Shown one piece after another: positions 16,241 through 63,401 of a stretch of 64,000 nucleotides of DNA. This DNA comes from an uncultured beta proteobacterium. GTDB lineage: Bacteria; Pseudomonadota; Gammaproteobacteria; Burkholderiales; SG8-39. The stretch spans positions 744,122 to 808,121 of the forward strand of contig CAVTJG010000009.1 in the NCBI GenBank assembly GCA_963735025.1, in the 5' to 3' direction. The translations under genes and the position numbers were made by a program. The first letter of the stretch is position 1. Each line of letters starts with the position of its first letter. The notes under the pieces are model-generated. The model was given only the letters and a program-made list of their open reading frames with translations. It was not told the DNA's origin and did not search any database.

Positions 16241-16330
16241 CGAGGCCACGAGACCGCGACGCAGAATCCGCAGAACACGAAACCGCTTGGTCGGCCATGC
16301 AACGCAGGCGCTCGCAAACGAATGGATTTG

Positions 16331-16390
16331 CAAGGGAGCTCGCTCCCTTGTTCGTTCGGGGGATATGCAGGGGGCGGCTCCCCTTGTTCG
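16331..16390. repeat. two tandem GC-rich hairpin units of the GGGGGATATRCARGGGG...CCCTTGTTCG family
   Basis: caagggagctcgctcccttgttcg (16331-16354) is followed by ttcgggggatatgcagggggcggctccccttgttcg (16355-16390). The core motif is shared with 23654-23694 (reverse orientation) and 60489-60559. Confidence 0.65.
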
Positions 16391-16442
16391 TCAAAAGGCA
16401 TTTTTTGAGGGTCCCCCCGGGGCAGTACCGCAGTCCGACTGA

Positions 16443-19400
16443 ATGCGATCGAGCGATAGTGAGAGGAGTGGTTTAACAGTGGCTGGCGAATTCGATATCG
16501 GGCCGTTGACGTGGGTCAAGGGCGAGATCGACCAAGCCCTCGAGAAGTCGCTCGGGTGCCTGCGCGCCTATGCCGCCAATCCGGCCGAGACGACGCAGCT
16601 GAAGTTCTGTCGCACGCATTTTCACCAGGCGCACGGCGCGCTGCAGATCGTCGGCCTGGACGGGGTGACACGCGTCTCGGAAGAACTCGAGGGCCTGATC
16701 GGCGAGACCGAGAAGTCGGGCGCGCCGCCCAAACCCGAGATGCTCGCCGCCGCCGAGCGAACCTACGAGGCCATTTCGGCTTATCTCGATCAGCTGCTCG
16801 CCGGCGAGCCGAACCAGCCGCTGCTGCTCTTTGCCGTGTACCGGGATCTCGCCGCAGCGCGCGGCAAGGATTCCGCGGATCCGGTCGATCTCTACTATCC
16901 TGATCTTTCGCACCGCCCGCCGCGCCGCGAACGCGCACCGTCGGCGCACACGGGCGACGCGCTGATCCAGCACTATCGCGACGCGCGCGCGCGCTATCAG
17001 CGCGGGCTGCTCAAGCTCCTCAAAAAGGATCCGACCGGAGCCGAAGACATGCGCGCCGCAGTGACGGCGGTCGAGGCGGCGCAAAGCGTGCCCGCGCAGC
17101 GCACATTCTGGTGGGTCGCCCTCGGATTCTTCGATGCGCTGGTCGCGCGTGCGATGCCCGACAACCCGACGCTCATGCGCCTGTGCAATCGCATCGAACA
17201 CCAGCTCAAGCGACTCGTCGAAGGCTCGACCAATGTCGCCGAGCGCTTGACGCGTGAGGCGCTATTCGCCGTGGCGCGCGCCCGGCCGGCAACCGAGCAC
17301 CTCCGGCAAGTCCAGGAGACCTTCGAGCTCGCCGGCTCGATCCCCGGCAGCTTCGAGCTGAAATCGGAATCCGCTGGCCAGTTGCCCGGCGTGCGTGCGA
17401 TGCGCGAGCTGGTCACGCAGGCCAAGACCTCCTGGAACAAGGCCGCATCCGGCCACCAGGGAAGCCTTGCCGCGTTCCGCGATCAGACCGCGCAGCTCGC
17501 CAAGCGTGCGGCCGAATCGGGCGACGATCTGTTGAAGGCGCTCGCCACCGATATGGCGATCACCGCAAAGTGGCTCGGCGACAGCCCCGACAAGGTGACC
17601 GACGCGGTCGCCATGGAAGTGGCCACCGCGTTGCTGCTGGTCGAGAACGCCACCGAGAACTACGCGCGCCTCGGCGATGAATTCAAGCAGCAAGTCGCAT
17701 TGATGCGCGGGCGGCTGCAGGGTGTCATGCAGGGCAAGATGCCCGAAGGCGCCGCGCCGGTGCTGGACGAGATGTCGCGCCGCGCCCAGGAACGCCTGCT
17801 GATGAGCCACGTCGTGGGCGAGATCAACGCGAGCCTGCGGTCGGTCGAGCAGGCGCTCGATGCGTTCTTCCGCGATTCCTCCCAGCGCCCCGAGCTCGTC
17901 GCGCTCGACAAGCCGATGCGTCAGGTGCTGGGCGCGTTGACCATGTTGAACGAGGACCGCGCCGCCGCGGCATTGTCCACGTGCGCGGCCGAGATCCAGC
18001 GCTTCGCCTCGCCGGACTATGCGCCAGCCCAGTCCGACTTCGAGCGAGTGGCCGGCACGCTGTCGGGACTCGGCTTCTATGTCGATTCGTTGCAGCACGG
18101 TAAGACCGATTTCGATGCCTTCATGCTGCCGATCGGCGCGCGCAAGGAAGCGCCTGCCGAAGAAGCGGAGACCGCCCAGGCGAGTGCCAGCGTCGAGGCC
18201 GGTCTTGCGAAGGGCAAGCGCGAAGTCCAGGAGCTCTTCGAGCGGTGGAAGAAAGAGCCTGGCGACGCGGCGCTCAAGGCCAAGCTCGAGGAGAATCTCC
18301 AGGCGTTGCAGAAGGACGCGAGCCTGACTGCGGAAGGCGCGCTCGAATCACGCGTCGCCGAGATGCTCGCGGTGCTCAAGAAAAGCGACGCCAAGACGTT
18401 CGATCCGGTGGCCACGCAGACGCTCGAGGGCATCACACCCGCATCCGCCGAGCCGCCGCCCTCGGCGAAGACCGAGGAACTCGTCAGCGCGAGCGCCGAG
18501 AAGGTCGACGCCGAGCTGCTCGCCGTGTATCTCGAGGAGGCGGGCGAGGTGCTCGCGACCATCGGTGCGAGCGTCGAGCAGGTGCGCGGAGAGCTGCACA
18601 ACATCGAGGAGCTGCGCACCATCCGGCGCGGCTTCCACACATTGAAGGGCAGCGGCCGGATGGTGGGACTGACCCGACTGGGCGAGGCCGCATGGGCGGT
18701 CGAGCAGGTGATGAACAAGTGGCTCGAGGAGGAGAGTCCGGCAACGCCCGATCTTCTGCGGCTCGTCGCCGAGGCGCAGTCGTTCTTCGGCGCCGCCGTC
18801 GAGGACCTCAAGTGCGGCGGAGCCGGACCCGACGAAGCCGCGATCGTCGCGCTCTCGCAGCAGGTGAAGTCCGGCGAACCATTGGGGGAAACCGCGAGTG
18901 CCCAATCGGCACCCGTGTCCGCGCCGGAAGCACCTGTCGAGGTGACCGAAGCACCGGTATTTGAAGAACAGGCTGCCGCCCCGGCAATCGAGGAAGTGGC
19001 GGAAGCGCCGGACACTCCGGTAATCGAGGAAGTGGCGGAAGCGCCGGACACTCCGGCAATCGAGCCACAGGAGTCCGTGCCCTTCGAACTTGCCGAAACG
19101 CTCACCGTGCCGCAAGAGTCAGCGCCAGAGGTCGACTTTCCCGCGTTCGAACTTCCCGGCGAGTCGCCTGCGCCCGCAATCGACCTGCCTGATTTCGATC
19201 TTCCGATTGGCGCACCGGAGGCGGAGGTTCTGCAGCCCGCCGCCGCACCGTCCGACGCACCGCCACCGGCCAAGGAGCCGGCACTTGGACCGATCTCGCT
19301 GGACTTCTCCCTGCCGATGTCGACCCTGAATGCCGAACCGGATGCGCAGCAGACGCCGCCGCCTGCCGAGACTCCGCCGGTCGAGGAACTGTTGCCATCC

Positions 19401-22400
19401 GCGATGACACCGGCTGACGACGATGCCGACAATACCGTGCACATCGGCGACGTCGAGCTGTCGCACTCTCTGTACGACATATTCAAGAGCGAATCGCGGG
19501 AGCATCTCGATGGCATCGCTGCCGCGCTGCGCGAGGTCGAGGGCGGGGCGCCCGTCAGCATCGATTTCCGCCGCGCCGCGCACACGCTTGCCGGGATTGC
19601 CGGAACGGTCAATTTCGATGGCATGTGGGCAGTCGGACACGCGCTGGAGCACATGCTTCACCGCGCCCAGGATCGCGCACTCGATGGCGCCGAGCTCGGC
19701 ACCGCGCGCGACGCGCTGGCGAAACTGGAGGAGATGGCCGCGGCGGTTGCCGCCGGTGTCGCGCCGCTTCCGGATCCGGATCTCGTCGCACGAATCGAGG
19801 CGACCGGCGACGCGCTCGCGGACTCGGCGGCGCTCAGCGATCCGGGCGAGAGCGACGATACGCTGACCCTTCCGGGCGGCGCGGGCGACGAAGACGCGCT
19901 CGATTTCACTGCGCTCGCCCCCGAGGGGGAAAGCGCTCCGGCGGCGCCTGCGGCGCCCGCCAATGTCGTGTCCTTCCCCGCTCCCGCGGAGGTTGCCGAG
20001 TCTCCGCCGGCCGACGTCAAGGTCGAGGAGATCCCGGTCGAGCGACGGCGCAGTCCGCGCGAAGAGGCTGCACGGGAGGCGCCGGCTGCGCCGCGCGCCG
20101 AGCACGGTCCCGACGTGACCGTCGAGGAGATTCCCGTCGAGCGGCGTCAACGCCGCCTCGACGACGATATCGATCCCGAGTTGCTGCCGATCTTCCTGGA
20201 AGAGGCGCACGAACTCATTCCGGCGGTGGGACAAGGGTTGCGCGACTGGCGCGCAAGTCCGGAGAACGCGGCCGCGGGCCAGGGTCTGCAACGCGTGCTG
20301 CACACGCTAAAGGGCTCCGCGCGAATGTGCGGTGCCATGGCGCTCGGCGAGCTGACGCACTCGATGGAAACGAAGATCGAGAACGCGATGGCGCTGAAAA
20401 CGCCACCCGACTCGCTGTTCGACGAATTCGACGCGGCCTACGACCGGATGGGTCTGCTCTTCGAACGCATGCAACTTCCCGAGGCGCTCGCCCCCGCTGC
20501 GCCCGAGCCGGCACCAGAACCGGCCGAGCCCGCAGAAGTCGAGCCGGATGTCGAGCCCGTCAGTGAGGCGGCGGCGTCCGAAGTGCCGGATGTCGATGCG
20601 CCGCAGCCGGCGGAGCCCGCTCCCGCGCGCGCCTCCGCCGCCCTCCCCGCGGCACGACCGGCCGGAGTCGAGCCGGACCCTGCTTTACAGACTCGCGCGA
20701 TGCTGCGCGTGCGCGCCGAGGTGATTGACCGGCTGGTGAACGAAGCGGGCGAGGTCAGCATCGCCCGCAGCCGGATCGAGGGCGAGTTGCGCGCCTTGAA
20801 GGGCGCGCTCTCCGAACTCACCGACAACACGAACCGTCTGCGCACGCAGCTGCGCGAGATCGAGATCCAGGCCGAGTCCCAGATGCAGTCGCGCCTCTCG
20901 CAGGTGCAGGAAGTCGAGACGCCGTTCGATCCGCTCGAATTCGACCGGTTCACTCGCTTCCAGGAAATCACGCGAATGATGGCCGAGAGCGTGAACGACG
21001 TCGCCACGGTGCAGCAGAATATTCTGCGTGCGGTGGGCGATGCGGACGGCGCGCTGTCCGCGCAGTCGCGACTCACGCGCGGCTTGCAAACCGACCTGAT
21101 GCGTATCCGGATGGTCCCCTTCTCGAGCGTCGCGGACCGGCTCTACCGCGTCGTGCGACAGGCGGCCAAGGAGACCGATAAGCGCGCAGTGCTCGACATT
21201 CGCGGCGGACAGGTGGAACTCGACCGCTCGGTGCTGGAGCGCATCACCGCGCCGTTCGAGCACATGCTCAGGAATTCGGTGGCGCACGGTATCGAAGCAC
21301 CCGCAACCCGCATCGAGCGCAGCAAGCCCGAGCTCGGCGAGATCAAGATCGAGGTGCGGCAGGAAGGCAACGAGATCATGCTCATGGTGTCGGACGACGG
21401 CGCCGGCCTCAACCTGCCGCGGATCCTCGAGAAGGCGCGTGCGCTGGGCCTCGTCGAGCCCGACCAGACGCCGACCAACGCGGAGATCGCGGATTTCATC
21501 TTCCACCCGGGATTCTCAACCGCCGCCGAAGTGAGCCAACTCGCCGGCCGCGGTGTCGGAATGGACGTGGTGAAGAGCGAGGCGGCGGCGCTCGGCGGGC
21601 GCATCGAGACGCACACCGAGCTCGGCAAGGGCACACGCTTCCTCATCTACCTGCCGCTCACGCTTGCCGTCACGCAGGCGGTGCTGGTTCGCGCCGGCCC
21701 GGTCCGGTTTGCCATTCCGGCGGTCATGGTCGAGCAGGTCCGGCAGGTCAAGACGCCGGAACTCGCCGCCTGTACGGAGTCGGGCGAGGCGCAGTGGCAA
21801 AATCGCAGCTATCCGTTCCGTTACCTGCCGCGCCTGCTCGGTGACTTCGACAGCCTGCCCGAGCAGAAGCGGTTCCACTCGATCATGTTCGTGCGCAGCG
21901 GCGCAAACGTCGTCGCGATCCACGTCGACGAAGTCGCGGGCGCGCAGGAAATCGTGGTCAAGAACACCGGGCCGCTGCTTTCACGCATCGCCGGCATCAC
22001 CGGCGCGACGGTGCTCGGCTCCGGCGAGATCGTGCTCATCATCAACCCGGTGATCCTTGCCGGCCGCGAACCGATCGAGTTCAGCTCGACGGACGCACCC
22101 GTCGTGGCGCGGGAGGAGGCGCCGATCCTCACCATACCGACCGTGATGATCGTCGACGATTCGCTCACGGTGCGCAAGATCACGGGCCGGTTGCTTTCGC
22201 GCGAGGGTTTCCACGTCCTCACGGCGAAGGACGGTGTGGACGCAGTGGAGCAACTGCAGGAGACGCTCCCGGATGTGATGCTGGTCGATATCGAAATGCC
22301 GCGGATGGACGGCTTCGACCTCACTCGCGCCGTGCGCGGCGATCCGCGGCTGCGCCACATTCCGATCATCATGATCACCTCGCGTACCGCCGAGCGACAC

Positions 22401-22523
22401 CGTGCGTACGCCAAGGAAATCGGCGTCAACGTGTATCTGGGCAAGCCTTTCCAGGAGGAAGAGCTCCTCGGGCACATCGCCACGTTCGTGGGCAAGGCCC
22501 ACACCGCCACGGACCCGGTGTAG
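16443..22523 (+). CDS. chpA: hybrid CheA-type histidine kinase ChpA (PilL) of the Pil-Chp pathway
   Basis: 2026-aa ORF with at least four Hpt-type motifs (HQAHGALQIVG, FHTLKGSGRMVG, AHTLAGIAGTV, LHTLKGSARMCG). It has kinase N/G boxes (HMLRNSVAHGIE, DDGAGL, GRGVGMDVV), a CheW-like domain and a C-terminal receiver (VMIVDDS...DIEMPRMDG...GKPF). An SD (GAGAGGAG, 16461-16468) suggests the true start may be GTG 16479. Confidence 0.9.
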   Translation: MRSSDSERSGLTVAGEFDIGPLTWVKGEIDQALEKSLGCLRAYAANPAETTQLKFCRTHFHQAHGALQIVGLDGVTRVSEELEGLIGETEKSGAPPKPEMLAAAERTYEAISAYLDQLLAGEPNQPLLLFAVYRDLAAARGKDSADPVDLYYPDLSHRPPRRERAPSAHTGDALIQHYRDARARYQRGLLKLLKKDPTGAEDMRAAVTAVEAAQSVPAQRTFWWVALGFFDALVARAMPDNPTLMRLCNRIEHQLKRLVEGSTNVAERLTREALFAVARARPATEHLRQVQETFELAGSIPGSFELKSESAGQLPGVRAMRELVTQAKTSWNKAASGHQGSLAAFRDQTAQLAKRAAESGDDLLKALATDMAITAKWLGDSPDKVTDAVAMEVATALLLVENATENYARLGDEFKQQVALMRGRLQGVMQGKMPEGAAPVLDEMSRRAQERLLMSHVVGEINASLRSVEQALDAFFRDSSQRPELVALDKPMRQVLGALTMLNEDRAAAALSTCAAEIQRFASPDYAPAQSDFERVAGTLSGLGFYVDSLQHGKTDFDAFMLPIGARKEAPAEEAETAQASASVEAGLAKGKREVQELFERWKKEPGDAALKAKLEENLQALQKDASLTAEGALESRVAEMLAVLKKSDAKTFDPVATQTLEGITPASAEPPPSAKTEELVSASAEKVDAELLAVYLEEAGEVLATIGASVEQVRGELHNIEELRTIRRGFHTLKGSGRMVGLTRLGEAAWAVEQVMNKWLEEESPATPDLLRLVAEAQSFFGAAVEDLKCGGAGPDEAAIVALSQQVKSGEPLGETASAQSAPVSAPEAPVEVTEAPVFEEQAAAPAIEEVAEAPDTPVIEEVAEAPDTPAIEPQESVPFELAETLTVPQESAPEVDFPAFELPGESPAPAIDLPDFDLPIGAPEAEVLQPAAAPSDAPPPAKEPALGPISLDFSLPMSTLNAEPDAQQTPPPAETPPVEELLPSAMTPADDDADNTVHIGDVELSHSLYDIFKSESREHLDGIAAALREVEGGAPVSIDFRRAAHTLAGIAGTVNFDGMWAVGHALEHMLHRAQDRALDGAELGTARDALAKLEEMAAAVAAGVAPLPDPDLVARIEATGDALADSAALSDPGESDDTLTLPGGAGDEDALDFTALAPEGESAPAAPAAPANVVSFPAPAEVAESPPADVKVEEIPVERRRSPREEAAREAPAAPRAEHGPDVTVEEIPVERRQRRLDDDIDPELLPIFLEEAHELIPAVGQGLRDWRASPENAAAGQGLQRVLHTLKGSARMCGAMALGELTHSMETKIENAMALKTPPDSLFDEFDAAYDRMGLLFERMQLPEALAPAAPEPAPEPAEPAEVEPDVEPVSEAAASEVPDVDAPQPAEPAPARASAALPAARPAGVEPDPALQTRAMLRVRAEVIDRLVNEAGEVSIARSRIEGELRALKGALSELTDNTNRLRTQLREIEIQAESQMQSRLSQVQEVETPFDPLEFDRFTRFQEITRMMAESVNDVATVQQNILRAVGDADGALSAQSRLTRGLQTDLMRIRMVPFSSVADRLYRVVRQAAKETDKRAVLDIRGGQVELDRSVLERITAPFEHMLRNSVAHGIEAPATRIERSKPELGEIKIEVRQEGNEIMLMVSDDGAGLNLPRILEKARALGLVEPDQTPTNAEIADFIFHPGFSTAAEVSQLAGRGVGMDVVKSEAAALGGRIETHTELGKGTRFLIYLPLTLAVTQAVLVRAGPVRFAIPAVMVEQVRQVKTPELAACTESGEAQWQNRSYPFRYLPRLLGDFDSLPEQKRFHSIMFVRSGANVVAIHVDEVAGAQEIVVKNTGPLLSRIAGITGATVLGSGEIVLIINPVILAGREPIEFSSTDAPVVAREEAPILTIPTVMIVDDSLTVRKITGRLLSREGFHVLTAKDGVDAVEQLQETLPDVMLVDIEMPRMDGFDLTRAVRGDPRLRHIPIIMITSRTAERHRAYAKEIGVNVYLGKPFQEEELLGHIATFVGKAHTATDPV
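18984..19064 (+). repeat. 36-bp in-frame tandem repeat (2.25 copies) inside chpA
   Basis: gYaatcgaggaagtggcggaagcgccggacactccg occurs at 18984-19019 and 19020-19055, with a partial third copy to 19064. It encodes IEEVAEAPDTP(V/A) twice in a Pro/Ala/Glu-rich linker. Confidence 0.9.
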
Positions 22524-53852: not shown

Positions 53853-54998
53853 TCAGCTTCGGAGCTCGAGGCCGATGTGGGAGAACGCGACCGCGAACAG
53901 CGAGTCGACGATGAGCACGATCGTGATGGCGGTCACCACCGACTGGGTGGTGCCGGCGCCAAGACTCTCGGTGTTCGGTCGGATTCGCAGGCCGAAGTGG
54001 CAGGCGGTCAGCGCGATCAGCGCGCCGAACACCGCTCCCTTTCCGAGCCCGAGCCAGAGGTTCGAAGTTGGCACCGCGACCGGAAGTGTTTGCATGAAAA
54101 GCGTAAAGCTGATGTCGAGCTCGAGTCGCGCCGCGAGCATCGCGCCGACGAGGGCGATCGCGCTGGTCCAAACGACCAGGAGCGGCACCGCGATCGTGAG
54201 TCCCACGACCTTCGGCAGAATCAGCCGGATGCCGGCGGGAATTCCCATCACGTTGAGCGCGTCGAGCTCTTCGGTCACCCTCATCACACCGAGCTGCGCC
54301 GTGATTGCCGAGCCCGACCGCCCGGCAACGAGGATCGCAGCGAGTACCGGCCCGAGCTCGCGGATGATACCGATGCCGACGATGTTGATGACGTAGATCC
54401 CGGCGCCGAAAGTCCGCAGCTGTTCTGCGGAGAGATAGCTCAGCACGATTCCGATGAGGAAGCCGACGAGCGCGGTGATGGGGAGTGCCTGCGCTCCTGC
54501 CCGGTGGAGCGTCGCCGACATCTCGCGCCAGGGGCCGCGCGACAGATTGGCGATCACCCATGCGCCGTCGAGCGCGACCTGGCCGGCGAGGCGGACGATA
54601 CCGGCGAGATGACTCCCGACGGTGATCATGCGTCGCCCGAGCGCCGCAAGCGGATCGAGCAGCGAGCGCCGCAGCACGGTGCGCTCGCCTTCGTCGGCAT
54701 GGGCGAGGTTCTCGAAGAAAAGCTCCTGCTCGGGTTCTATCCGGAGTTGTGCGGGGCGCTTTCGCTCCCACGCGCGCCAGAGGAGCAGCGCGCCGACGTA
54801 GTCCAGGCGCTCGATACCGGTCAGGTCCCAGGCGTCGCGCGCGGCGAATCGCGCGAGCTCGCCGCCCAGCGCGCTTGCGCGGGTTTCGAGCGCGCGAATG
54901 TCCCACGCTCCACCGACCCGGATGGTGCGCGTGCCGTCCGCGCTCAGCTCGGCGTCGATCTCGGGATCGCGGATCCGCTTGGGCGCAGGCTCGGCCAT
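53853..54998 (-). CDS. MlaE-family ABC permease with an N-terminal STAS-like domain
   Basis: ORF 53853..55106, with the likely start at ATG 54998. A roughly 110-aa soluble N-terminal region (TIRVGGAWDIRALE...WDLTGIERLDYVGALLL) is followed by the MlaE core (VGIGIIRELGPVLAAILVAGRSGSA). Confidence 0.85.
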   Translation of the reverse strand: MAEPAPKRIRDPEIDAELSADGTRTIRVGGAWDIRALETRASALGGELARFAARDAWDLTGIERLDYVGALLLWRAWERKRPAQLRIEPEQELFFENLAHADEGERTVLRRSLLDPLAALGRRMITVGSHLAGIVRLAGQVALDGAWVIANLSRGPWREMSATLHRAGAQALPITALVGFLIGIVLSYLSAEQLRTFGAGIYVINIVGIGIIRELGPVLAAILVAGRSGSAITAQLGVMRVTEELDALNVMGIPAGIRLILPKVVGLTIAVPLLVVWTSAIALVGAMLAARLELDISFTLFMQTLPVAVPTSNLWLGLGKGAVFGALIALTACHFGLRIRPNTESLGAGTTQSVVTAITIVLIVDSLFAVAFSHIGLELRS

Positions 54999-55084
54999 CG
55001 AACATTGCCCGGCGTGCGTTGCCGCTGCGCCGGTTTCCTCCCCTGTTGTTGCACGAAGCGAAGGGCCACACCCCCTCGCGCTCC

Positions 55085-55121
55085 CCAAAATCAGGAGAAC
55101 TGCCAAACAACGGCAGTTCTC
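55085..55121 (-). terminator. putative rho-independent terminator after the ClpX-like gene
   Basis: A perfect 10-bp stem (gagaactgcc, 55095-55104 / ggcagttctc, 55112-55121) is followed on the minus strand by CTGATTTT. Confidence 0.45.
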
Positions 55122-55205
55122 TCTCTGGCTGTTCAGGCTGAGGCTAGCAAATTAATGCCGCCTCGGCCATTGTGGAAAATCCGGCGGATGTGCCTGCGAC
55201 GGCGT

Positions 55206-56216
55206 TCAACCCGCGCGTGGGCCGTGAACCATGCGCGGCTCGACGAACAGGGACGCGATCTCGACTTTCCGGATCGTGGGGTCGTCGGGGACCTGGTACA
55301 GGACCGGGGTGATCAGCTCCTCGAAGAGCCCGCGCAGGCTGCGGGCCCCGGTCTTGTACTCGATCGCCAGGTCGGCGATCTGCTCGAAGACGTCGCGATC
55401 GACCGTCAGCTCGACGCCCTCGTCCGCGAAGATATCCCGAAACTGGGAGTACATGGCGTCGGCGGGCTCGGTCATGATGCGCACCAGCATGTCCCGGGTG
55501 AGATCCTGGAAACGCGCCGTGATCGGCAGCCGCCCGGTGAACTCGGGGATGAGCCCGAACTCGATCAGGTCGGTTGGCTTGACGCGCGCGTTGAGGCGAT
55601 CGAGGACGGCGGGATTGTCCTCGCCCGATGTGGAGATGTAGCCGTATGTATGGCTGTGCGAGGCGATCTTCTCCAGTCCGACGAAGGCACCGCCGCAGAT
55701 GAACAGGATGTTCGTGGTATCGAGGTACTGGCCGGTGCCCAGCTTGACCATGCAGCCTTCCATGATCTTCAGGAGCGCGTGCTGCACGCTCTCTCCCGAG
55801 ATGCCCTGAGGCTGTCCCTTCGTCCCCTTGAGCTTGTCGATCTCGTCGATGAAGACGATGCCGTTCTGGGCGCGATCGATGTCGCCGTCCGCGCCGTCGA
55901 CGAGGCGCTGCAGGATCGCCTCGATCTCGTCGTTGACATACCGGCTCTGCGCAAGCGAGGTGGCCTCCGCCGTCACGAACGGCACACGCAGCGCCCGCGA
56001 CAGCGTCTCGCACATCAAGGTCTTGCCCGTTCCGGTGGGCCCGATCAGGAGGACGTTGCTCTTGGCAATCGGTGCGGCGCCGCGGCGCGAGCGCGCGATC
56101 TTCTTCACGTGCGTGTACACGGCGACGGCCAGCGTCCGCTTGGCGTCGTCCTGTCCGATCACGTACTGATCGAGGTACTTCACGATGAGGCTCGGCTTGT
56201 TCACGGCTTCTGGCAC
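55206..56216 (-). CDS. ClpX-like AAA+ ATPase lacking the zinc-binding domain
   Basis: ORF 55206..56336. The start is uncertain (GTG 56216 or 56204; neither these nor ATG 56336 has an obvious SD). It is collinear with ClpX from YLDQYVIGQDDAKRTLAVAVY. It has Walker A (GPTGTGKT), Walker B (IVFIDEIDK), LIPEFTGRLP and TGARSLR. Confidence 0.8.
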   Translation of the reverse strand: MPEAVNKPSLIVKYLDQYVIGQDDAKRTLAVAVYTHVKKIARSRRGAAPIAKSNVLLIGPTGTGKTLMCETLSRALRVPFVTAEATSLAQSRYVNDEIEAILQRLVDGADGDIDRAQNGIVFIDEIDKLKGTKGQPQGISGESVQHALLKIMEGCMVKLGTGQYLDTTNILFICGGAFVGLEKIASHSHTYGYISTSGEDNPAVLDRLNARVKPTDLIEFGLIPEFTGRLPITARFQDLTRDMLVRIMTEPADAMYSQFRDIFADEGVELTVDRDVFEQIADLAIEYKTGARSLRGLFEELITPVLYQVPDDPTIRKVEIASLFVEPRMVHGPRAG

Positions 56217-56455
56217 GGCGGGGTTCCGGAGGTGACGATCTCCAACAATAGCGCTTCTGCGCCCATCCTGTTCCTTGTTCCCTGTTGGCGGCAAGGTTAA
56301 TCGGCTGGCACAGCGCGATTTGCATGTGCGGTGCATGCCGGGGATCGTTGGTGGTTGGGGACCGCGTTGCTATACTGGGTGCGTGAGTCGTCGAGTCACC
56401 GATGGCCGCGAATATTCGTTGCTGATGTTCTTCGAAAGTTTATTGGAGCTGATAG

Positions 56456-56734
56456 ATGGCGCGCATGGTCAAGTGCATCAAGCTCGGGCGCGAAGCCGAG
56501 GCGCTCGACTTCCCGCCACTCCCCGGTGAGCTCGGCAAGCGGCTCTACGAGAACGTGTCGAAGGAATCTTGGAAGCAGTGGCTCGAGCACCAGAAGATGC
56601 TGGTGAACGAGAATCAGCTCAATCTCTCCGACAAGAAGGCGCGCGACTATCTCCTGAAGCAGACGGAGAATTATTTCTTCGGTACCGGCGCGGACGTTGC
56701 CGCGGGCTACGTCCCGCCGGGACAGAAAAAATAG
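56456..56734 (+). CDS. yggX: oxidative-damage protection / Fe(2+)-trafficking protein YggX
   Basis: 92-aa ORF: [52 protein letters not shown]. Confidence 0.9.
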
Positions 56735-56807
56735 GCGTGCGCCACATTGAAGCGCGGAACCGGCACGTGCCGGCACGCCGTGCGATCCGTTTCCTGGCCA
56801 CAACATC

Positions 56808-57209
56808 ATGAGCAGTGATACGCCACAGCCGACCGACATCAAGCTGCATCAGAAGTCGCGGGTGCTGGAGCTCTCGTTCGCCGACGGTCAGACCTTCAAG
56901 TTGCCTTGCGAGTTTCTGCGCGTCTACTCGCCGTCGGCCGAAGTGCGCGGCCACGGCCCGGGACAGGAAGTACTCCAGGTCGGGAAGAGCGACGTGGAGA
57001 TCTCCCAGATCGAGCCGGTGGGCAGTTACGCAATCCAGCTCACATTCTCGGATGGCCACGACACCGGCATCTACTCGTGGGACCTGCTGTACGAGTACGG
57101 CCTGCACCAGGAGGAGATGTGGCGGAGCTACCTCAAGCGCCTGGAAGAGGCTGGCGCGAGTCGCGCCCCGGGCCCCGCACCTTACGCGCAGCGGCCGCAA
57201 TCGAAGTAG
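56808..57209 (+). CDS. DUF971 (gamma-butyrobetaine hydroxylase N-terminal-like) domain protein
   Basis: 133-aa ORF with LELSFADGQTFKLPCEFLRVYSPSAEVRGH ... VGSYAIQLTFSDGHDTGIYSWDLLYEYG, matching the DUF971 pattern. Confidence 0.85.
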   Translation: MSSDTPQPTDIKLHQKSRVLELSFADGQTFKLPCEFLRVYSPSAEVRGHGPGQEVLQVGKSDVEISQIEPVGSYAIQLTFSDGHDTGIYSWDLLYEYGLHQEEMWRSYLKRLEEAGASRAPGPAPYAQRPQSK

Positions 57210-57281
57210 CCGGGACGCGAGCCGCCAACCTTCGAGGCGTGCGGGCGCGATTCCCCGTCCCGGCGTTGCGAAAGAATCGAT

Positions 57282-58742
57282 ATGAATAAGCCGCTGCATC
57301 CAGAAATGTTGTCCCGCGCCGCACCGAGCGTGGCAGCGAAGGCGACCGACTCCTTCCGCGTCGTTCTCATCAACCCCTACGAGCTCGGCCGTCAGCCGTT
57401 TGCCTTGGCCGAACCCGCCGCCTGGCTGAAGCGCTCGGGATTTCCCGTGTCTTGCCTGGATCTCTCGCTGCAGAAGCTCGATCCCGAAGTACTGACCGGT
57501 GCGGGACTGGTGGCGATCTACGTGGGCATGCATACGGCCACCCGCATTGCGATCGAGGCATTGCCTCGCATCAAACAGCTCGCCCCACGGGCGCACATCT
57601 GCGTCTACGGGCTGTACGCCCCGATGAACGAGGCGCGCCTGCGCACGTTGGGTGTCGACTCTGTGCTGGGCGGCGAACTGGAGCCCGCGCTGCTATCGCT
57701 GTGCGAACGGGTGTGCGCCGACCGAACGTCCACGACCCAGCGTGAGCCGCTCGTCAGCCTGGCGAAAATACGATTCGAGGTACCGGACCGCAGTGTCCTG
57801 CCGAAACTTTCCCGGTACGCTCATCTCGTGCTGCCGGACGGATCGACTCGCACCGTGGGCTTCGCGGAGGGCAGCCGCGGCTGCAAGCACTTGTGCCGGC
57901 ATTGCCCGGTGGTTCCTGTGTACCAGGGAAAATTCCGGATCGTCCCGACGGACGTGGTAATTCAGGATATCGCGCAGCAGGTCCACGCAGGCGCCACGCA
58001 TATTTCGTTCGGCGATCCGGATTTCTTCAACGGCTCCACGCATGGTCTCAAGCTGGCGCGCGCCTTGCACGACGCGTTCCCGCATGTCACGTTCGACGCC
58101 ACCATCAAGATCCAGCACCTCATCGACCACGCCGAGCTGTTGCCCGAATTGCAGCGCTGCGGGTGCCGGTTCATCACGACCGCAGTGGAAGCGGTGGATG
58201 ATGAGATCCTGCTTCACCTCGCCAAGAACCACACCAGTCGCGACTTCGACAAGGCGGTTGCGCTGGTCCGCGCAGCAGGAATCGCGCTCGCCCCGACGTT
58301 CGTTGCATTCACGCCCTGGACGACGCTCGATGGCTACATCGCCATGCTCGAGCGGCTCGTCCAGCTGCAGCTCGTGGAAAGCGTTCCCCCGGTGCAGCTC
58401 ACGATCCGGCTGCTCGTTCCGGAGGGTTCGTATCTCCTGCAGTTGCCCGGGTTCCCGGAACAGCTGCTGGGTTTCGATCCTGCGCTCCTCGGCTACCGGT
58501 GGCGTCATGCCGATCCGCGTGTGGACCGGCTCCAGCAAGCTGTGCAGGATTGCGTGGCGCAGAGCGAGCGGGAAGGGCTCGCACGACGAGAAGTCTTCGC
58601 GGCCGTCTGGCACATGGCCCATGCGGCTGCCCGGCGCCGCGCACCTGAGCTTGCCGGCGATCTCGGGTCGCCGATCCCGCGGCTATCTGAGCCGTGGTAC
58701 TGCTGCGCCGAACCGACCGAATCGCAGCTCCAGTCTTTCTGA
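57282..58742 (+). CDS. radical SAM protein with an N-terminal B12-binding-like domain and a C-terminal CCAEP tail
   Basis: 486-aa ORF with a CxxxCxxC cluster motif (GCKHLCRHCPV, 57882-57905). The N-terminal Rossmann-like region is VVLINPYELGRQP...VAIYVGMHT. The tail is PWYCCAEPTESQLQSF (Cys-Cys codons at 58701-58706). Confidence 0.85.
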   Translation: MNKPLHPEMLSRAAPSVAAKATDSFRVVLINPYELGRQPFALAEPAAWLKRSGFPVSCLDLSLQKLDPEVLTGAGLVAIYVGMHTATRIAIEALPRIKQLAPRAHICVYGLYAPMNEARLRTLGVDSVLGGELEPALLSLCERVCADRTSTTQREPLVSLAKIRFEVPDRSVLPKLSRYAHLVLPDGSTRTVGFAEGSRGCKHLCRHCPVVPVYQGKFRIVPTDVVIQDIAQQVHAGATHISFGDPDFFNGSTHGLKLARALHDAFPHVTFDATIKIQHLIDHAELLPELQRCGCRFITTAVEAVDDEILLHLAKNHTSRDFDKAVALVRAAGIALAPTFVAFTPWTTLDGYIAMLERLVQLQLVESVPPVQLTIRLLVPEGSYLLQLPGFPEQLLGFDPALLGYRWRHADPRVDRLQQAVQDCVAQSEREGLARREVFAAVWHMAHAAARRRAPELAGDLGSPIPRLSEPWYCCAEPTESQLQSF

Positions 58743-58754
58743 TCGCTCCGCACC

Positions 58755-60014
58755 ATGCACCGCGTTCTGCTGTTGTTTCCGACCACCAGTTACCGCAACG
58801 TGGATTTTCTCGCTGCCGCGAAAAAGCTCGGCGTGGAAATCGTCGCCGCGGCGGACTACTGTCACCAACTCGCCCCGTCCTGGGGTCTGCCGCCGATCAT
58901 GGCCCTGCATTTCGACCGGCCCGAGCAGGCGGCGGACACTGTTCTGCGGGAGCTCGCGGGCAAGCCCACCGCCGTGCTGGCGGTGGACGATTCGGGAGTG
59001 GAGCTCGCTGCGTTGCTGACGGAGCGTCTCGGTCTGCCGGGAAACCCTGTTCATGCGGTGCAGCGCGTGCGCGACAAGCTGGCGTTCCGTCGACTGCTTC
59101 GCGAGCATGATTTCCTGTGCCCCGATTTTAGGCACCTGCCGACCGGCGTGGACCCTCGCTCACTGTCACGGGATCTGAAGTATCCCGTGGTGGTGAAAGC
59201 GCGGCGGCTTTCGGCGAGCCGCGGGGTGATTCGCGCCGACGATGCCGATGCACTCGTGCGAGCCGTGAACTGGGTGCGGGCCATCCAGTCCCGCGCCGAT
59301 CGTGATGCCCGGGAGCTGGGCATCCTCATCGAGGACTTCATACCCGGTCGCGAATATGCCCTCGAAGGCACGCTGGAGCGCGACGGCCTGACCATGCTCG
59401 CCCTTTTCGACAAACCCGATCCGCTGGACGGGCCGTATTTCGAGGAGACGCTCTACGTCACGCCTTCCCGGTTGCCGGGCGAGCTCCAGCACCGCTTGCA
59501 CCAGGAAGTCGCGCGAGCATGCCACGCTGCCGGGCTGGTGACCGGTTCGATTCATGCCGAGGTGCGTATCAACGACCGCGGCATCTGGATCCTGGAGATT
59601 GCGCCGCGCTCCATCGGCGGCCTGTGCGGGCGGATGCTCACCCATTCGCTCGGCATGACGCTGGAGGAATTCATCCTGCGCCAGGCCATTGCAGATCCGC
59701 GGCCGGTACGGAGCGCGGGCGGCGCGTCGGGCGTGATGATGATCCCCGTTCCGCGCCGCGGCATTTATCATGGCATCGAGGGGCTGACTGCCGCCCAGTC
59801 CGTGCCTGGTGTGACCGGACTGACCATTTCGGCGCAGCCCGGTCAGATCATCGCGCCGCCTCCCGACGGCGCGAGCTATCTGGGATTCATCTTTGCGCGC
59901 GCGGAGCATCCTGAGGAGGCCGAACGCGCGTTGCGAATGGCGCATTGCGCGCTGACGTTCGACATCCGTCCCGAGTATCCGGCGATGCTCGCGCCTGCAG
60001 CCGAAAAGGCATGA
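58755..60014 (+). CDS. ATP-grasp domain ligase (L-amino-acid-ligase-like)
   Basis: 419-aa ORF starting 12 nt after the radical SAM stop. ATP-grasp elements are present: DKLAFRRLLREH, YPVVVKARRLSASRGV, ILIEDFIPGREYALEG and IHAEVRINDRGIWILEIAPRSIGG. Confidence 0.85.
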   Translation: MHRVLLLFPTTSYRNVDFLAAAKKLGVEIVAAADYCHQLAPSWGLPPIMALHFDRPEQAADTVLRELAGKPTAVLAVDDSGVELAALLTERLGLPGNPVHAVQRVRDKLAFRRLLREHDFLCPDFRHLPTGVDPRSLSRDLKYPVVVKARRLSASRGVIRADDADALVRAVNWVRAIQSRADRDARELGILIEDFIPGREYALEGTLERDGLTMLALFDKPDPLDGPYFEETLYVTPSRLPGELQHRLHQEVARACHAAGLVTGSIHAEVRINDRGIWILEIAPRSIGGLCGRMLTHSLGMTLEEFILRQAIADPRPVRSAGGASGVMMIPVPRRGIYHGIEGLTAAQSVPGVTGLTISAQPGQIIAPPPDGASYLGFIFARAEHPEEAERALRMAHCALTFDIRPEYPAMLAPAAEKA

Positions 60015-60605: not shown

Positions 60606-61397
60606 CTAGGAAAGCAATCGTTTGCGAAACAGGATGAGCGCAGCGTAAAAGGCGACCGCGCCGTACGCGATCAGCACCAACAAGTGTAGCGCGATGTCCG
60701 CAGGAATTTCGCCGAGCAGCAGCGGGCGCACGAGCAAGGTGGCATGCGTGAGCGGCAGTGCGTGCGAGACGATCTGGATGCCCGCGGGCAGCTGATCGAC
60801 CGGGAAGAAGACGCCGGAAAGCATCGCCATCGGCGTGATGAACAGCGTGAAGTAGTACATGAAGAAATCGTACGAGGGCGACACCGCCGTCACGACCAGC
60901 CCGAGCCCGCTGAACGCGAAGCCGATCACCGGGATGAGCGGCAGGACCCAGAGCGCGAGCCAGCTCTTGAGCAGACCCAGCGCCGCGGCCACCAGCAGGA
61001 TCGCCAGGCCGGAGAGGAACGACTTGCTCGCCGCCCACGTGCATTCACCGAGCACGATGTCCTCCAGCGCGAGCGGCGCGTTCAGCATGGCATCCCAGCT
61101 GCGCTGCACCTGCATGCGCGAGAAAGAGGAATAGAGGGTCTCGAACGTCGCGCTGTTCATGGTCGAGAAGCAAACCGTCCCGGCCGCAAGATAGACGATA
61201 TACGGAACGCCATTCACTTCCGGGAGCAGCCTGCCCAGACCGTAACCGAAGCCGAGCATGTAGATCATCGGATCGGCCAGATTGCCGAGCATCGAGGGCA
61301 CCGCGAGCTTTTGCCAGACGAGGAACATGCGGCGCCAGACGGCCGTGAAGCGCCACGAGAGCTGCGGCGGCGCGAACGAATAGGCGGCCGGGATCAT
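60606..61397 (-). CDS. nodJ: ABC-2 type exporter permease (NodJ-like)
   Basis: 263-aa ORF with six TM segments, downstream of the NodI-like ATPase gene. Confidence 0.8.
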   Translation of the reverse strand: MIPAAYSFAPPQLSWRFTAVWRRMFLVWQKLAVPSMLGNLADPMIYMLGFGYGLGRLLPEVNGVPYIVYLAAGTVCFSTMNSATFETLYSSFSRMQVQRSWDAMLNAPLALEDIVLGECTWAASKSFLSGLAILLVAAALGLLKSWLALWVLPLIPVIGFAFSGLGLVVTAVSPSYDFFMYYFTLFITPMAMLSGVFFPVDQLPAGIQIVSHALPLTHATLLVRPLLLGEIPADIALHLLVLIAYGAVAFYAALILFRKRLLS

Positions 61398-61421
61398 GAT
61401 GCCATCTCGTCGATCAGGAAG

Positions 61422-62372
61422 TCAGTCACGCAGCTCCCTTCCGGTCAGCTTTAGGAACACGTCCTCCAGGTTGGCGGGCCGGTGCAGGTAGCGAAGCTCC
61501 GGCTCGTGCTCCAGGCTCGCGAGGAGTGGCGTGTCATCCGTGGTGTAGCAGAACACAGTGTCGCCCGCCCGCTCGATGCGGCTGGCCAGTGCGCGTCCCG
61601 TTCGTTCCGTCCAGGCGTCCGTGCCGTCGCCGTGCACCTCGACCACGTGGCGTTCGATATGCCGGCGCACGAGCTCGCGCGGCGCGCCCGCGGCAATGAT
61701 CTGGCCGCGATCGATGATCACCAGCCGGTTGCACAGCCGCTCGGCTTCCTCCATGAAATGCGTGGTGAGCAGGATGGTCTTGCCCTGTCCCGTAAGACGG
61801 CGCAGCCGCTCCCAGATGAGGTGGCGGGCCTGCGGATCGAGCCCGGTAGTCGGCTCGTCCATGAAAACCACGTCCGGGTCGTTGATGAGCGCCCGCGCCA
61901 AGGTGAGCCGGCGCTTCATTCCGCCCGAGAGCGTCGCAATCTTCGACTCGGCACGGCCCGCGAGCCCGGCGAATTCCACGAGTCCCGGAATGCGCGCCCG
62001 CAGCACCTCGGCGCGGATGCCGAAGTATCGGCCGTAGACGAGCAGGTTCTCGGCCACCGTGAAATCGGGATCGAGGTTGTCCATCTGCGGGACCACGCCG
62101 ATCCGCATGCGCGCTTCGCGGCCGCGCGCGGGAACCGGCTTGTCGAGCACGGTGATCTCGCCGGCGTCCGGAGTGGTGAGTCCGAGCGCGAGTCGCAACG
62201 TGGTCGTTTTGCCCGCGCCGTTGGGGCCGAGCAATCCGAAACACTCGCCGCGCCGGAGCGAGAAATCGATGCCCGCCAGGACTTCCTGGGCCCCGTACGA
62301 CTTGCGCAGGCCGCGTACGCTGAGCACCGTGCCCGCACCCTGCTCGCCGGCTGAAATGTCGGGCTCGATCAT
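61422..62372 (-). CDS. nodI: ABC exporter ATP-binding protein (NodI-like)
   Basis: 316-aa ORF with GPNGAGKTTT, LSGGMKRRLTLARALINDP, DEPTTGLDPQARHLIWERLR and GKTILLTTHFMEEAERLC. It is closely collinear with the rhizobial NodI I recall. Confidence 0.85.
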   Translation of the reverse strand: MIEPDISAGEQGAGTVLSVRGLRKSYGAQEVLAGIDFSLRRGECFGLLGPNGAGKTTTLRLALGLTTPDAGEITVLDKPVPARGREARMRIGVVPQMDNLDPDFTVAENLLVYGRYFGIRAEVLRARIPGLVEFAGLAGRAESKIATLSGGMKRRLTLARALINDPDVVFMDEPTTGLDPQARHLIWERLRRLTGQGKTILLTTHFMEEAERLCNRLVIIDRGQIIAAGAPRELVRRHIERHVVEVHGDGTDAWTERTGRALASRIERAGDTVFCYTTDDTPLLASLEHEPELRYLHRPANLEDVFLKLTGRELRD

Positions 62373-62386
62373 GGGGCGCGGATCGT

Positions 62387-63046
62387 TCAGTGCCAGTTCC
62401 CTTTCACGATGTCACGGATGATGTTCAACCGACGGTGAAAGAAGTGGTCGGCCCCGGGAATCACGATTACCGGCAACTCCTGGGGACGCGCCCAGTCGAG
62501 CACCCGCGCGAGCGGCACGGTCTCGTCGTGCTCGCCGTGAATGACGATGGTGCCGGCCGGAACGGTCGGCGTGGTGTACTTGCGCTCGCCGAGGTCGCCC
62601 GCGGCGGTGCCTACGAGCACCAATCGCTCCGATGTCACGCGCTGCGCGACGCGCGTCTGAACGTAGCTGCCGAAGGAGAAACCGGCAAGCGCGAGCGGCT
62701 TCTCGCCGAAGCGATCGCGAGCATATTCGATCACCGCGAGCATGTCGTCCGTCTCGCCTTCGCCGTGGTCGTGCGTCCCCTCCGACTTGCCCACGCCGCG
62801 AAAGTTCGGACGGATTGCGACGTAGCCGAGCTCGACGAACGCGCGCGCGAGTGTCGCCACGACCTTGTTGGTGAGCGTGCCGCCGAAAAGCGGATGGGGA
62901 TGGCAGACGAGCGCGATGCCGCGCACGCCTTCGGAGACGCCGTCCGCGGGAAAAACGGTCGGATGCTCGACGACCGTCTCGATCCGTCCGGCCGGCCCGG
63001 CGACGAAGACGTGCTCTTCGGATTTCCGTCTCAGGGAGCTTTGCAT
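62387..63046 (-). CDS. alpha/beta hydrolase (COG2945-like)
   Basis: ORF 62387..63271, with the likely start at ATG 63046. It has a nucleophile elbow (GFSFGS) and a C-terminal HFF motif. Confidence 0.8.
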   Translation of the reverse strand: MQSSLRRKSEEHVFVAGPAGRIETVVEHPTVFPADGVSEGVRGIALVCHPHPLFGGTLTNKVVATLARAFVELGYVAIRPNFRGVGKSEGTHDHGEGETDDMLAVIEYARDRFGEKPLALAGFSFGSYVQTRVAQRVTSERLVLVGTAAGDLGERKYTTPTVPAGTIVIHGEHDETVPLARVLDWARPQELPVIVIPGADHFFHRRLNIIRDIVKGNWH

Positions 63047-63092
63047 GCGACGAGCGTGGCAAGGAGAGGAGGTGCCCCTTGCGTGTTCGAGT

Positions 63093-63401
63093 CTATATGC
63101 GCAGCCGCTCGACGACGCGCCCGTGCACCAGGTGCTCGTCGATGATTTCGTCGATGTCGGTCTTGTCGACGTAGGTGTACCAGACCTCTTCCGGATACAC
63201 CACGATGACTGGGCCCTCGTCGCAGCGGTCCAGACACCCGGCGGTATTGATTCGCACCTTGCCCTCGCCACTCAGCTTGAGCGCCTTGACGCGGTCTTTC
63301 GCATACGCGCGCACATCCTTCGCGCCGCGGTCCGCACAGCAGGCCTCGCCCGGCTCGCGCTGGTTGCAGCAGAAGAAGACGTGATGCTTGTAGTAGCTCA
63401 T
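63093..63401 (-). CDS. thioredoxin-like [2Fe-2S] ferredoxin
   Basis: 102-aa ORF with the Cys ligand pattern HVFFCCNQR...ACC...AGCLDRCDEGPV. Confidence 0.85.
   Translation of the reverse strand: MSYYKHHVFFCCNQREPGEACCADRGAKDVRAYAKDRVKALKLSGEGKVRINTAGCLDRCDEGPVIVVYPEEVWYTYVDKTDIDEIIDEHLVHGRVVERLRI

Follow-up and report, generated by a model that had tools for sequence, protein, structure and literature searches.

The 64,000-nucleotide stretch of DNA analyzed here (the window; assembly GCA_963735025.1, contig CAVTJG010000009.1, positions 744,122 to 808,121), from an uncultured betaproteobacterium, encodes on its minus strand a ClpX-like AAA+ ATPase, and the question that this locus raises is whether such a protein is still a component of the ClpXP protease or a motor that has been put to another use. 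An earlier note, made from the letters of the sequence, described it as a ClpX paralogue without the N-terminal zinc-binding domain (ZBD), GYVG pore loop, RKH loop and IGF loop, and proposed that it is a ClpP-independent remodeller. Our analysis indicates that the gene is best read as encoding a minimal, functional derivative of ClpX, one that is strongly conserved and forms a clade of its own in so-far-uncultured Betaproteobacteria. The protein is an uncharacterized but well-conserved variant of the ClpX type, and it is reasonable to regard it as something other than a standard ClpXP component.

At its maximal span the minus-strand open reading frame extends from an in-frame ATG at 56336 to the stop at 55206. 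Because the homologues, of 330–336 amino acids, share a start that coincides with the in-frame GTG at 56216 (a relative of 92% identity, for example, starts with MPDSVSKPSLIVKYL), we take the gene to be 55206–56216 on the minus strand, with a product of 336 amino acids; a start at ATG 56336 would add 40 residues that are found in no homologue and contain no C4 motif. The gene and the landmarks of its product are the following:

55206..56216, minus strand: coding sequence of the ClpX-like AAA+ ATPase, 336 amino acids and stop codon, GTG start at 56216 (from the open reading frame list, a survey of start codons and homologue starts)
56019..56042, minus strand: Walker A motif GPTGTGKT, residues 59–66 (alignment)
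55926..55955, minus strand: pore-1 loop LAQSRYVNDE, residues 88–97, with Tyr93-Val94 kept and the flanking glycines replaced by Arg92 and Asn95 (alignment)
55833..55859, minus strand: Walker B motif IVFIDEIDK, residues 120–128 (alignment)
55797..55832, minus strand: pore-2 loop region LKGTKGQPQGIS, lacking 3 residues relative to E. coli ClpX
55713..55760, minus strand: site of the RKH-loop deletion, EGCMVKLGTGQYLDTT, residues 153–168, a 10-residue gap relative to E. coli ClpX
55611..55661, minus strand: equivalent of the IGF loop, SHSHTYGYISTSGEDNP, residues 186–202, with the tip YGY at 55638–55646 (alignment)
55524..55535, minus strand: arginine finger GRLP, R229 (alignment)
55332..55355, minus strand: sensor-2 motif KTGARSLR, R292 (alignment)

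The protein is collinear with ClpX of Escherichia coli K-12 and 44% identical to it in a formal alignment that includes ten relatives, and both Walker motifs are intact, as the earlier note had it. All features of the HCLR clade of AAA+ ATPases are present, namely Walker A, Walker B, arginine finger, sensor-2, and the large and small domains (Pfam AAA_2 and ClpB_D2-small), and GPTGTGKT, IVFIDEIDK, GRLP and TGARSLR are invariant in the ClpX-like family to which the protein belongs. The NCBIfam ClpX models are its best matches by far, with 355.7 bits for NF003745 (cut-off 359) and 318 bits for TIGR00382 (cut-off 370.75), both curated whole-protein equivalog cut-offs for ClpX being narrowly missed. 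ClpX chains are the best sequence matches in the PDB (E = 2e-79), and all top Foldseek matches of the AlphaFold2 model (pLDDT 70.6) are ClpX, which points to a ClpX fold overall. Since the scores lie just under both cut-offs and the family forms its own clade outside betaproteobacterial ClpX (see below), the data support a protein that is derived from ClpX without being an orthologous ClpX.

HslU (ClpY) resembles the window protein as an HCLR-clade motor that has no ZBD, no RKH loop and no IGF motif, and its model TIGR00390 is the second-best profile. An identity as HslU is nevertheless ruled out: the match, far weaker than that to ClpX, reaches 169.7 bits over three separate stretches against a cut-off of 362, the I-domain insertion is missing, the C-terminal tail of the family, unlike that of HslU, shows no conservation, and hslV is adjacent at none of 18 family loci (a few of them near-duplicates). 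Models of anti-phage defence proteins from PADLOC gave no specific match, only generic similarity at the level of the P-loop over about 80 residues (E = 2e-7 or weaker).

The landmarks by which ClpX is known were measured in 120–267 canonical-type ClpX sequences, drawn from bacterial genome loci, viral-contig loci and representatives of 50%-identity clusters, and in 127 members of the family. The window protein begins at about residue 62 of E. coli ClpX, the starting point also of the engineered ClpX-deltaN (residues 62–424), and is without the N-terminal C4 ZBD: Pfam zf-C4_ClpX gave no match even in the extended open reading frame, and tblastn with E. coli ClpX over the whole window matched only residues 58–414, with no such domain encoded elsewhere. 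The domain is present at 118 of 120 canonical ClpX loci vs none in the family. The RKH loops are critical for substrate recognition and have been described as unique to ClpX-family enzymes (PMC7112951); in the family, the spacing from EG to FICGGAF that spans this region is 16 residues, vs 26 in 114 of 120 canonical sequences (minimum 20), and a spacing of 16–17 recurs in three of about 139 cluster representatives, a few of them ZBD-bearing ClpX. Both the ZBD and the RKH loop are truly lost in the window protein, as had been claimed.

The pore is a different matter. E. coli EAGYVGEDV aligns opposite AQSRYVNDE, so that RYVN stands in place of GYVG at pore-1, and the pattern across the family is [RKE][YF]V[NGSA], while GYVG occurs in 116 of 120 canonical ClpX. 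The Tyr-Val of pore-1 packs against substrate in ClpXP structures (PMC7112951), and it is this substrate-contacting pair, the aromatic residue and the Val, that is kept across the family, only the flanking glycines being altered. Like the retained Tyr-Val, the shortening of the pore-2 loop is a feature beyond those listed in the earlier note: the spacing from Walker B to SGE is 11 residues in 119 of 126 family members vs 14 in 194 of 231 canonical sequences (range 11–17).

At the position of the ClpP-docking loop, the window protein carries Y191 and Y193 within the peptide SHTYGYISTSGEDN, and E. coli GSGIGFG aligns opposite HTYGYIS in a segment 5 residues shorter than that of E. coli. The region has a total length of 41 residues in the window protein and 41–42 in the family (canonical mode 44, bulk 33–54), with an arm of 12 residues before the tip (canonical mode 15, range 11–21) and of 26–27 after it (canonical mode 26, which is exactly the length in the window protein). 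What distinguishes the family is the tip, which reads YGY in 76 members, YGF in 42, FGF in 6 and FGY in 3, and hence [YF]G[YF] in 127 of 127, fixed as [YF]-G-[YF]-I-[SA]-T-S in place of the (L/I/V/M)-G-F of canonical ClpX. Among 267 canonical-type sequences, the tips are IGF (154), MGF (27), LGF (27), VGF (24), IGY (6), VGY (4), FGF (4) and IGL or LGL (4), with [ILMV]-G-[FL] in 236. The published docking consensus is (L/I/V)-G-(F/L) (PMC8745299), and position 1 of the tip is outside it, never aliphatic, in the 127 family members. In E. coli ClpX, binding to ClpP suffers severely from I268L, F270L or V274A, and loops of altered length bind with lower affinity (PMC7112951); the residue equivalent to V274 is Ser in the window protein. 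Because the tip lies outside the docking consensus in all 127 members, the protein is unlikely to be a canonical partner of ClpP.

The loop is also conserved in its own way. G192 is invariant in the family (100%), I194, S197 and D200 are conserved at 98%, and Y191, T196 and N201 at 91% or more, and the loop ranks at the 33rd percentile of equal-length residue stretches in conservation, vs the 4th percentile of its own protein for the canonical IGF loop. Conservation over most of the family loop suggests an interface unlike the flexible IGF loop. The alignment thus reproduces, as sequence, all four differences from ClpX in the earlier note, and none of them comes from misaligning loops that are in truth conserved. 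Two were overstated: GYVG is replaced, but the gripping Tyr93-Val94 is kept family-wide, and the IGF tip is replaced, but a loop of canonical-range length with a fixed tip is present. The loss of substrate gripping and of ClpP docking, which the note had derived from these differences, is implied by neither, since the Tyr-Val and a docking-type loop are retained.

The family is large and tight. The best 120 matches of a large protein search were close relatives only (73–93% identity, 318–411 amino acids), whose named sources are metagenome-assembled genomes (MAGs) of Burkholderiales or Betaproteobacteria, one being labelled only Proteobacteria, and whose public annotation is inconsistent, either "ClpX" or "AAA family ATPase". 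Taking the most divergent member as the query led to the same result. The family comprises hundreds of 90%-identity clusters, of 330–346 amino acids, from independent samples, and an exhaustive search of 50%-identity representatives returned essentially one full-length family cluster and fragments, followed by a jump to ordinary ClpX at 40–50% identity. The top bit-score match in that representative library was a protein of another kind (P0121; 511 bits over three stretches), Asn/Lys-rich and 1238 amino acids long, with three tandem ClpX-like AAA+ modules that each have neither ZBD nor IGF-type tip and with the pore loops GYHG, GYIG and SYRG. A scan of a genome collection, made with narrow peptide patterns and therefore giving a lower bound, found at least seven members at 64–73% identity, all in MAGs (uncultured betaproteobacteria, Sulfuritalea, Accumulibacter and Rhodocyclaceae), and next among the matches listed came canonical ClpX at no more than 47% identity. 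Every member with a named source comes from Burkholderiales, Rhodocyclales or an unclassified betaproteobacterial MAG, and the family is known so far from uncultured Betaproteobacteria alone.

An origin from mobile elements is rejected, with no family member among the best 80 matches on viral contigs (45% identity or less) and none among 72,556 plasmids, where all matches fell below 60% identity. The family is under strong purifying selection, with a ratio of nonsynonymous to synonymous substitution rates (dN/dS) of 0.10 against the relative of 92% identity and 0.25 against a 74%-identical relative (P0057). One apparent member that bears a ZBD (P0273, 419 amino acids) was not accepted as evidence. 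Over its N-terminal ~135 residues it is a canonical ClpX, C4 zinc finger included; at the Walker A stretch KSNVLLIGPTGTGKT the sequence changes to that of the ZBD-less family, in its P0122 branch (the whole protein is 90% identical to P0122). A single contig of 2.3 kb carries it, and the two parts were probably fused during assembly within the conserved Walker A DNA, a real recombinant being the alternative. Literature searches returned no description of this ClpX-like subfamily or of a partner, and the family is without a characterized member.

Phylogenetic placement, which the earlier note had called for, was obtained from a neighbour-joining tree of 332 well-aligned columns, with E. coli HslU as the outgroup and 100 bootstraps. 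The family was monophyletic in 100 of 100 replicates and sister to betaproteobacterial ClpX in none. It fell outside a monophyletic canonical ClpX in 60 of 100, and canonical monophyly itself varied between 34 and 60 of 100 across the neighbour-joining analyses, so that whether the family branches inside or beside canonical ClpX appears ambiguous in these trees and may be subject to long-branch effects. The mean distance from the family to canonical ClpX is 0.96, about twice the 0.46 among canonical ClpX of different phyla. Because both types occur in Sulfuritalea (family locus L005, canonical L021) and in Rhodocyclaceae (family L007, canonical L040), the data support paralogy with canonical ClpX at the genus or family level; canonical tig-clpP-clpX loci are found in Burkholderiales as well (L056, L061, L068 and L080).

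Measured against canonical ClpX, the family therefore shares the collinear AAA+ large and small domains, Walker A and B, arginine finger, sensor-2, the Tyr-Val of pore-1 and a loop at the IGF position, and differs in having no ZBD, RYVN at pore-1, a pore-2 loop shorter by 3 residues, the RKH loop deleted, a YGY or YGF tip, scores below the cut-offs, a separate clade and a genomic position that is never the tig-clpP-clpX-lon locus. The nearest described parallel is ClpX3 of Myxococcus xanthus (MXAN_2743, WP_026113955.1), which has neither the N-terminal domain nor the RKH motif, is 43.5% identical to E. coli ClpX and is encoded by an isolated gene; clpX3 is dispensable, but a mutant without it is sensitive to heat, and stationary phase induces expression of the gene (PMC11423568). 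Using the published cloning primer as a DNA pattern, we recovered ClpX3-type sequences from metagenome contigs: eleven proteins of 356–361 amino acids that begin with MESSAR and are 41–44% identical to E. coli ClpX, one of them at 43.54%, the figure published for ClpX3.

ClpX3 of M. xanthus is like the window protein in being ZBD-less, without RKH motif, about 350 amino acids long, about 43% identical to E. coli ClpX and isolated from clpP. The recovered ClpX3-type proteins, however, are only 33–36% identical to the window protein, and they retain GYYG, an RKH-region loop of full length and a [VMI]GF tip of the canonical kind, which the window family does not. The family and ClpX3 formed a clade in 0 of 100 bootstraps, and canonical ClpX grouped with the family to the exclusion of ClpX3 in 93 of 100. 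Common descent with Myxococcus ClpX3 is accordingly rejected, and the two ZBD-less lineages are independent, because their identity is low, their loops are distinct and they never group in bootstraps; the family is thus not part of a subfamily already characterized. The ClpX3-type proteins (L175–L197) are themselves mosaic, their first ~100 residues being 50–53% identical to E. coli HslU and their tip [VMI]GF. Mitochondrial ClpX and yeast Mcx1, which carry out ClpP-independent partial unfolding or remodelling in the activation of ALA synthase (PMC7547079), offer a functional analogy only; they are eukaryotic, with insertions of their own and no tie in sequence beyond the family.

The genomic surroundings give no partner. 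In the window, a divergent yggX (PF04362) lies upstream of the gene, followed by a GBBH-like_N protein, a radical SAM protein and an ATP-grasp ligase, and an operon of the Mla/MCE type (MlaE, ABC ATPase, MlaD, ABC_trans_aux) lies downstream on the same strand, separated by a hairpin:

55095..55121, minus strand: terminator-like hairpin, an 11-bp stem followed by CTGATTTTGG, 85 nt past the stop codon

The arrangement had been described in the earlier note and is borne out by the Pfam contexts and by the 11-bp stem with its T-run, yet it does not withstand comparison. In the 92%-identical relative (locus L082), the Mla operon is kept downstream, the upstream genes are different and yggX is absent. 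Neither Mla genes nor yggX were found by tblastn with the window genes near the seven genome loci at 64–73% identity, and six more contexts, of relatives 72–79% identical, all differ (racemase, Rieske oxygenase, Dus, methyltransferase, GST and others). Both are therefore absent from all 13 independent contexts other than L082, and no other neighbour recurs by clustering of open reading frames or by Pfam; the Mla operon and yggX are local accidents, irrelevant to the role of the gene. At the 18 family loci, clpP, lon and hslV are never adjacent and the tig-clpP-clpX-lon locus is never occupied by the family, and no clpP is encoded in the 64,000-nt window; clpP is adjacent at 61 of 73 canonical genome loci, including 14 of 14 that are betaproteobacterial.

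In our judgement it is about an even call that the protein is a minimal ClpX-derived unfoldase which no longer docks to housekeeping ClpP in the canonical way and acts alone or with another partner. Such a protein would form a hexameric ring that pulls polypeptides through its axial pore by ATP hydrolysis, with Tyr93 and Val94 gripping. In the absence of the ZBD and the RKH loops, the routes by which ClpX takes up ssrA-type tags and ZBD-dependent adaptors would be closed, and this loss, together with the Arg beside each pore Tyr, would imply a different selection of substrates, possibly (and speculatively) a preference for acidic or unstructured tails. On its exit face, the loop most likely would not dock to housekeeping ClpP canonically, and the probable action would be that of a stand-alone unfoldase or remodeller, or of a motor whose re-specified loop serves another partner. 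A ClpP-independent remodeller, as the earlier note had proposed, thus emerges as the likelier reading, now carried by a tip that never matches the docking consensus in 127 members, as two of the four original premises were overstated.

Several observations weigh against this reading, and most of them speak for a second, specialized ClpX in which only the parts for substrate recognition have changed and which feeds different substrates, through the variant [YF]-G-[YF] loop, to a housekeeping ClpP encoded elsewhere. The loop has the appearance of a ClpP-docking loop: it has been kept, its hydrophobic-Gly-aromatic tip is correctly placed, with the Gly invariant and the flanking aromatics fixed, and the C-terminal arm (26–27 residues, the modal length in the window protein), the N-terminal arm (12) and the total (41–42) are all in the canonical range. 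It is difficult to see why such a loop would have been kept if it docked to nothing. The tips FGF, IGY and VGY are present in otherwise ordinary ClpX (4, 6 and 4 of the 267 canonical-type sequences), and the independently derived ZBD-less ClpX3 type of Myxococcus keeps [VMI]GF. Moreover, unlinked ClpX paralogues can use ClpP in trans, and Myxococcus ClpX2 and ClpX3 are encoded by isolated genes (PMC11423568). The AlphaFold2 model, with a pLDDT below 50 over residues 178–237, loop included, gives no readable conformation of the loop; the ring and its pulling activity are predicted from conserved motifs only, and the evidence for paralogy with canonical ClpX is at the level of the genus or family. 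ClpP also meets the pore-2 loop of ClpX, and that loop is shortened here, which counts against a ClpP-coupled role, as do the 18 family loci, none with clpP adjacent. None of the 127 members has an aliphatic residue at position 1 of the tip, and so fixed a shift would not be expected if the ClpP pocket that receives IGF were still the target; in E. coli, I268L or V274A is enough for a severe defect (PMC7112951), and the equivalent of V274 is a Ser. We hold the ClpP-coupled role to be possible, but would not rely on it.

Other explanations fare worse. That the gene is the sole ClpX of these organisms, an orthologous replacement with all ClpX duties, is left some room by the fact that the evidence for both types reaches the genus or family and not the single genome, but it is improbable given the canonical tig-clpP-clpX loci in the same genera and families (L021, L040, L056, L061, L068 and L080), the absence of the family from that locus at all 18 family loci and its branching outside betaproteobacterial ClpX. 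A functional tie to the adjacent Mla/MCE-type lipid-transport operon, such as extracting or remodelling a transporter component, would suit a gene directly upstream of mlaE-ABC-mlaD-aux on the same strand in both the window and L082; with no Mla genes at the seven loci of 64–73% identity, six further contexts that differ and a terminator-like hairpin between gene and operon in the window, we consider it very improbable. Finally, several hallmark loops that are altered or absent, and scores just below the ClpX cut-offs, could be taken for a decaying or non-functional clpX duplicate or for an artefact of annotation or assembly. The frame is intact, dN/dS is 0.10, the catalytic motifs are invariant and the same changes recur in hundreds of full-length relatives from independent samples, a pattern of conservation that refutes decay and leaves this explanation next to no credit.

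Beyond the reading of a minimal unfoldase that no longer docks to ClpP, we tentatively raise the possibility of a third kind of ClpX/HslU-type motor, in which the loop [YF]-G-[YF]-I-S-T-S...D-N would serve a partner other than ClpP, or none, and the Arg-Tyr-Val pore would serve a new class of substrates.

The neighbourhood of the gene holds some features of its own. The hairpin sits in a stretch of about 80 nt (window 55060–55140), possibly a small inserted element, that is missing from L082, where the intergenic region is shorter. The window (55144–55155, minus strand) and L082 (8072–8083, plus strand) each contain exactly one copy of an AT-rich 12-mer, TTAATTTGCTAG, in both cases in the intergenic region that separates the ClpX-like gene from mlaE, where chance would give 0.02 or fewer; a role as promoter or operator of the Mla-type operon is possible. 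No sigma-70-like promoter was found near the ClpX-like gene, and the window contains no Rfam families or tRNA. The MlaE-like open reading frame (window 53853–55106, minus strand; 417 amino acids) has a TTG start call at 55106 that overlaps the hairpin; the L082 protein has 381 amino acids, which fits ATG 54998 (MAEPAPKR...) in the window, and the Pfam MlaE domain covers residues 199–406 of the 417-residue frame, about 160 N-terminal residues having no domain match.

Upstream, the plus-strand block at 56456–60014 (yggX, GBBH-like_N of PF06155, a radical SAM protein of 486 amino acids and an ATP-grasp ligase with LAL_C2) is placed between the ClpX-like gene and hydrolase, ABC and ABC-2 genes at 60606–63271. 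In L082, counterparts of the latter genes are found a few kb away on the upstream side of the ClpX-like gene, past asparaginase, GFA and UPF0093, and the plus-strand block is absent; its radical SAM and ATP-grasp pair resembles a small cassette for modification or biosynthesis. At the locus of another relative (P0089; L084 1–765), genes for two transferases of the N-end rule, a Leu/Phe-tRNA-protein transferase and an arginyl-transferase, ATE, lie 6–7 kb upstream of the ClpX-like gene, a single case. Farther away in the window, a PilJ-type methyl-accepting protein and a ChpA-like hybrid kinase of 2026 amino acids, with several Hpt domains, CheW and a receiver domain, form a type IV pilus chemosensory cluster (14060–22523, plus strand) that is unrelated to the ClpX-like gene.

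ClpX is among the best understood of unfolding machines, with a job assigned to each of its accessory loops, and the family amounts to a natural experiment on it. In the course of evolution the adaptor domain and the RKH loops were lost, while the motor and the gripping Tyr stayed and the docking tip was rewritten, and strong selection has maintained this design in many environmental Betaproteobacteria, Accumulibacter and Sulfuritalea relatives among them. With a family model of their own, these proteins would no longer be counted as housekeeping ClpX. The identity of a partner would tell whether a loop of the IGF type can be re-targeted and what cellular use there is for a bare ClpX motor; if the protein is indeed a third kind of motor, Betaproteobacteria would carry a so far unknown pathway of proteostasis or remodelling.

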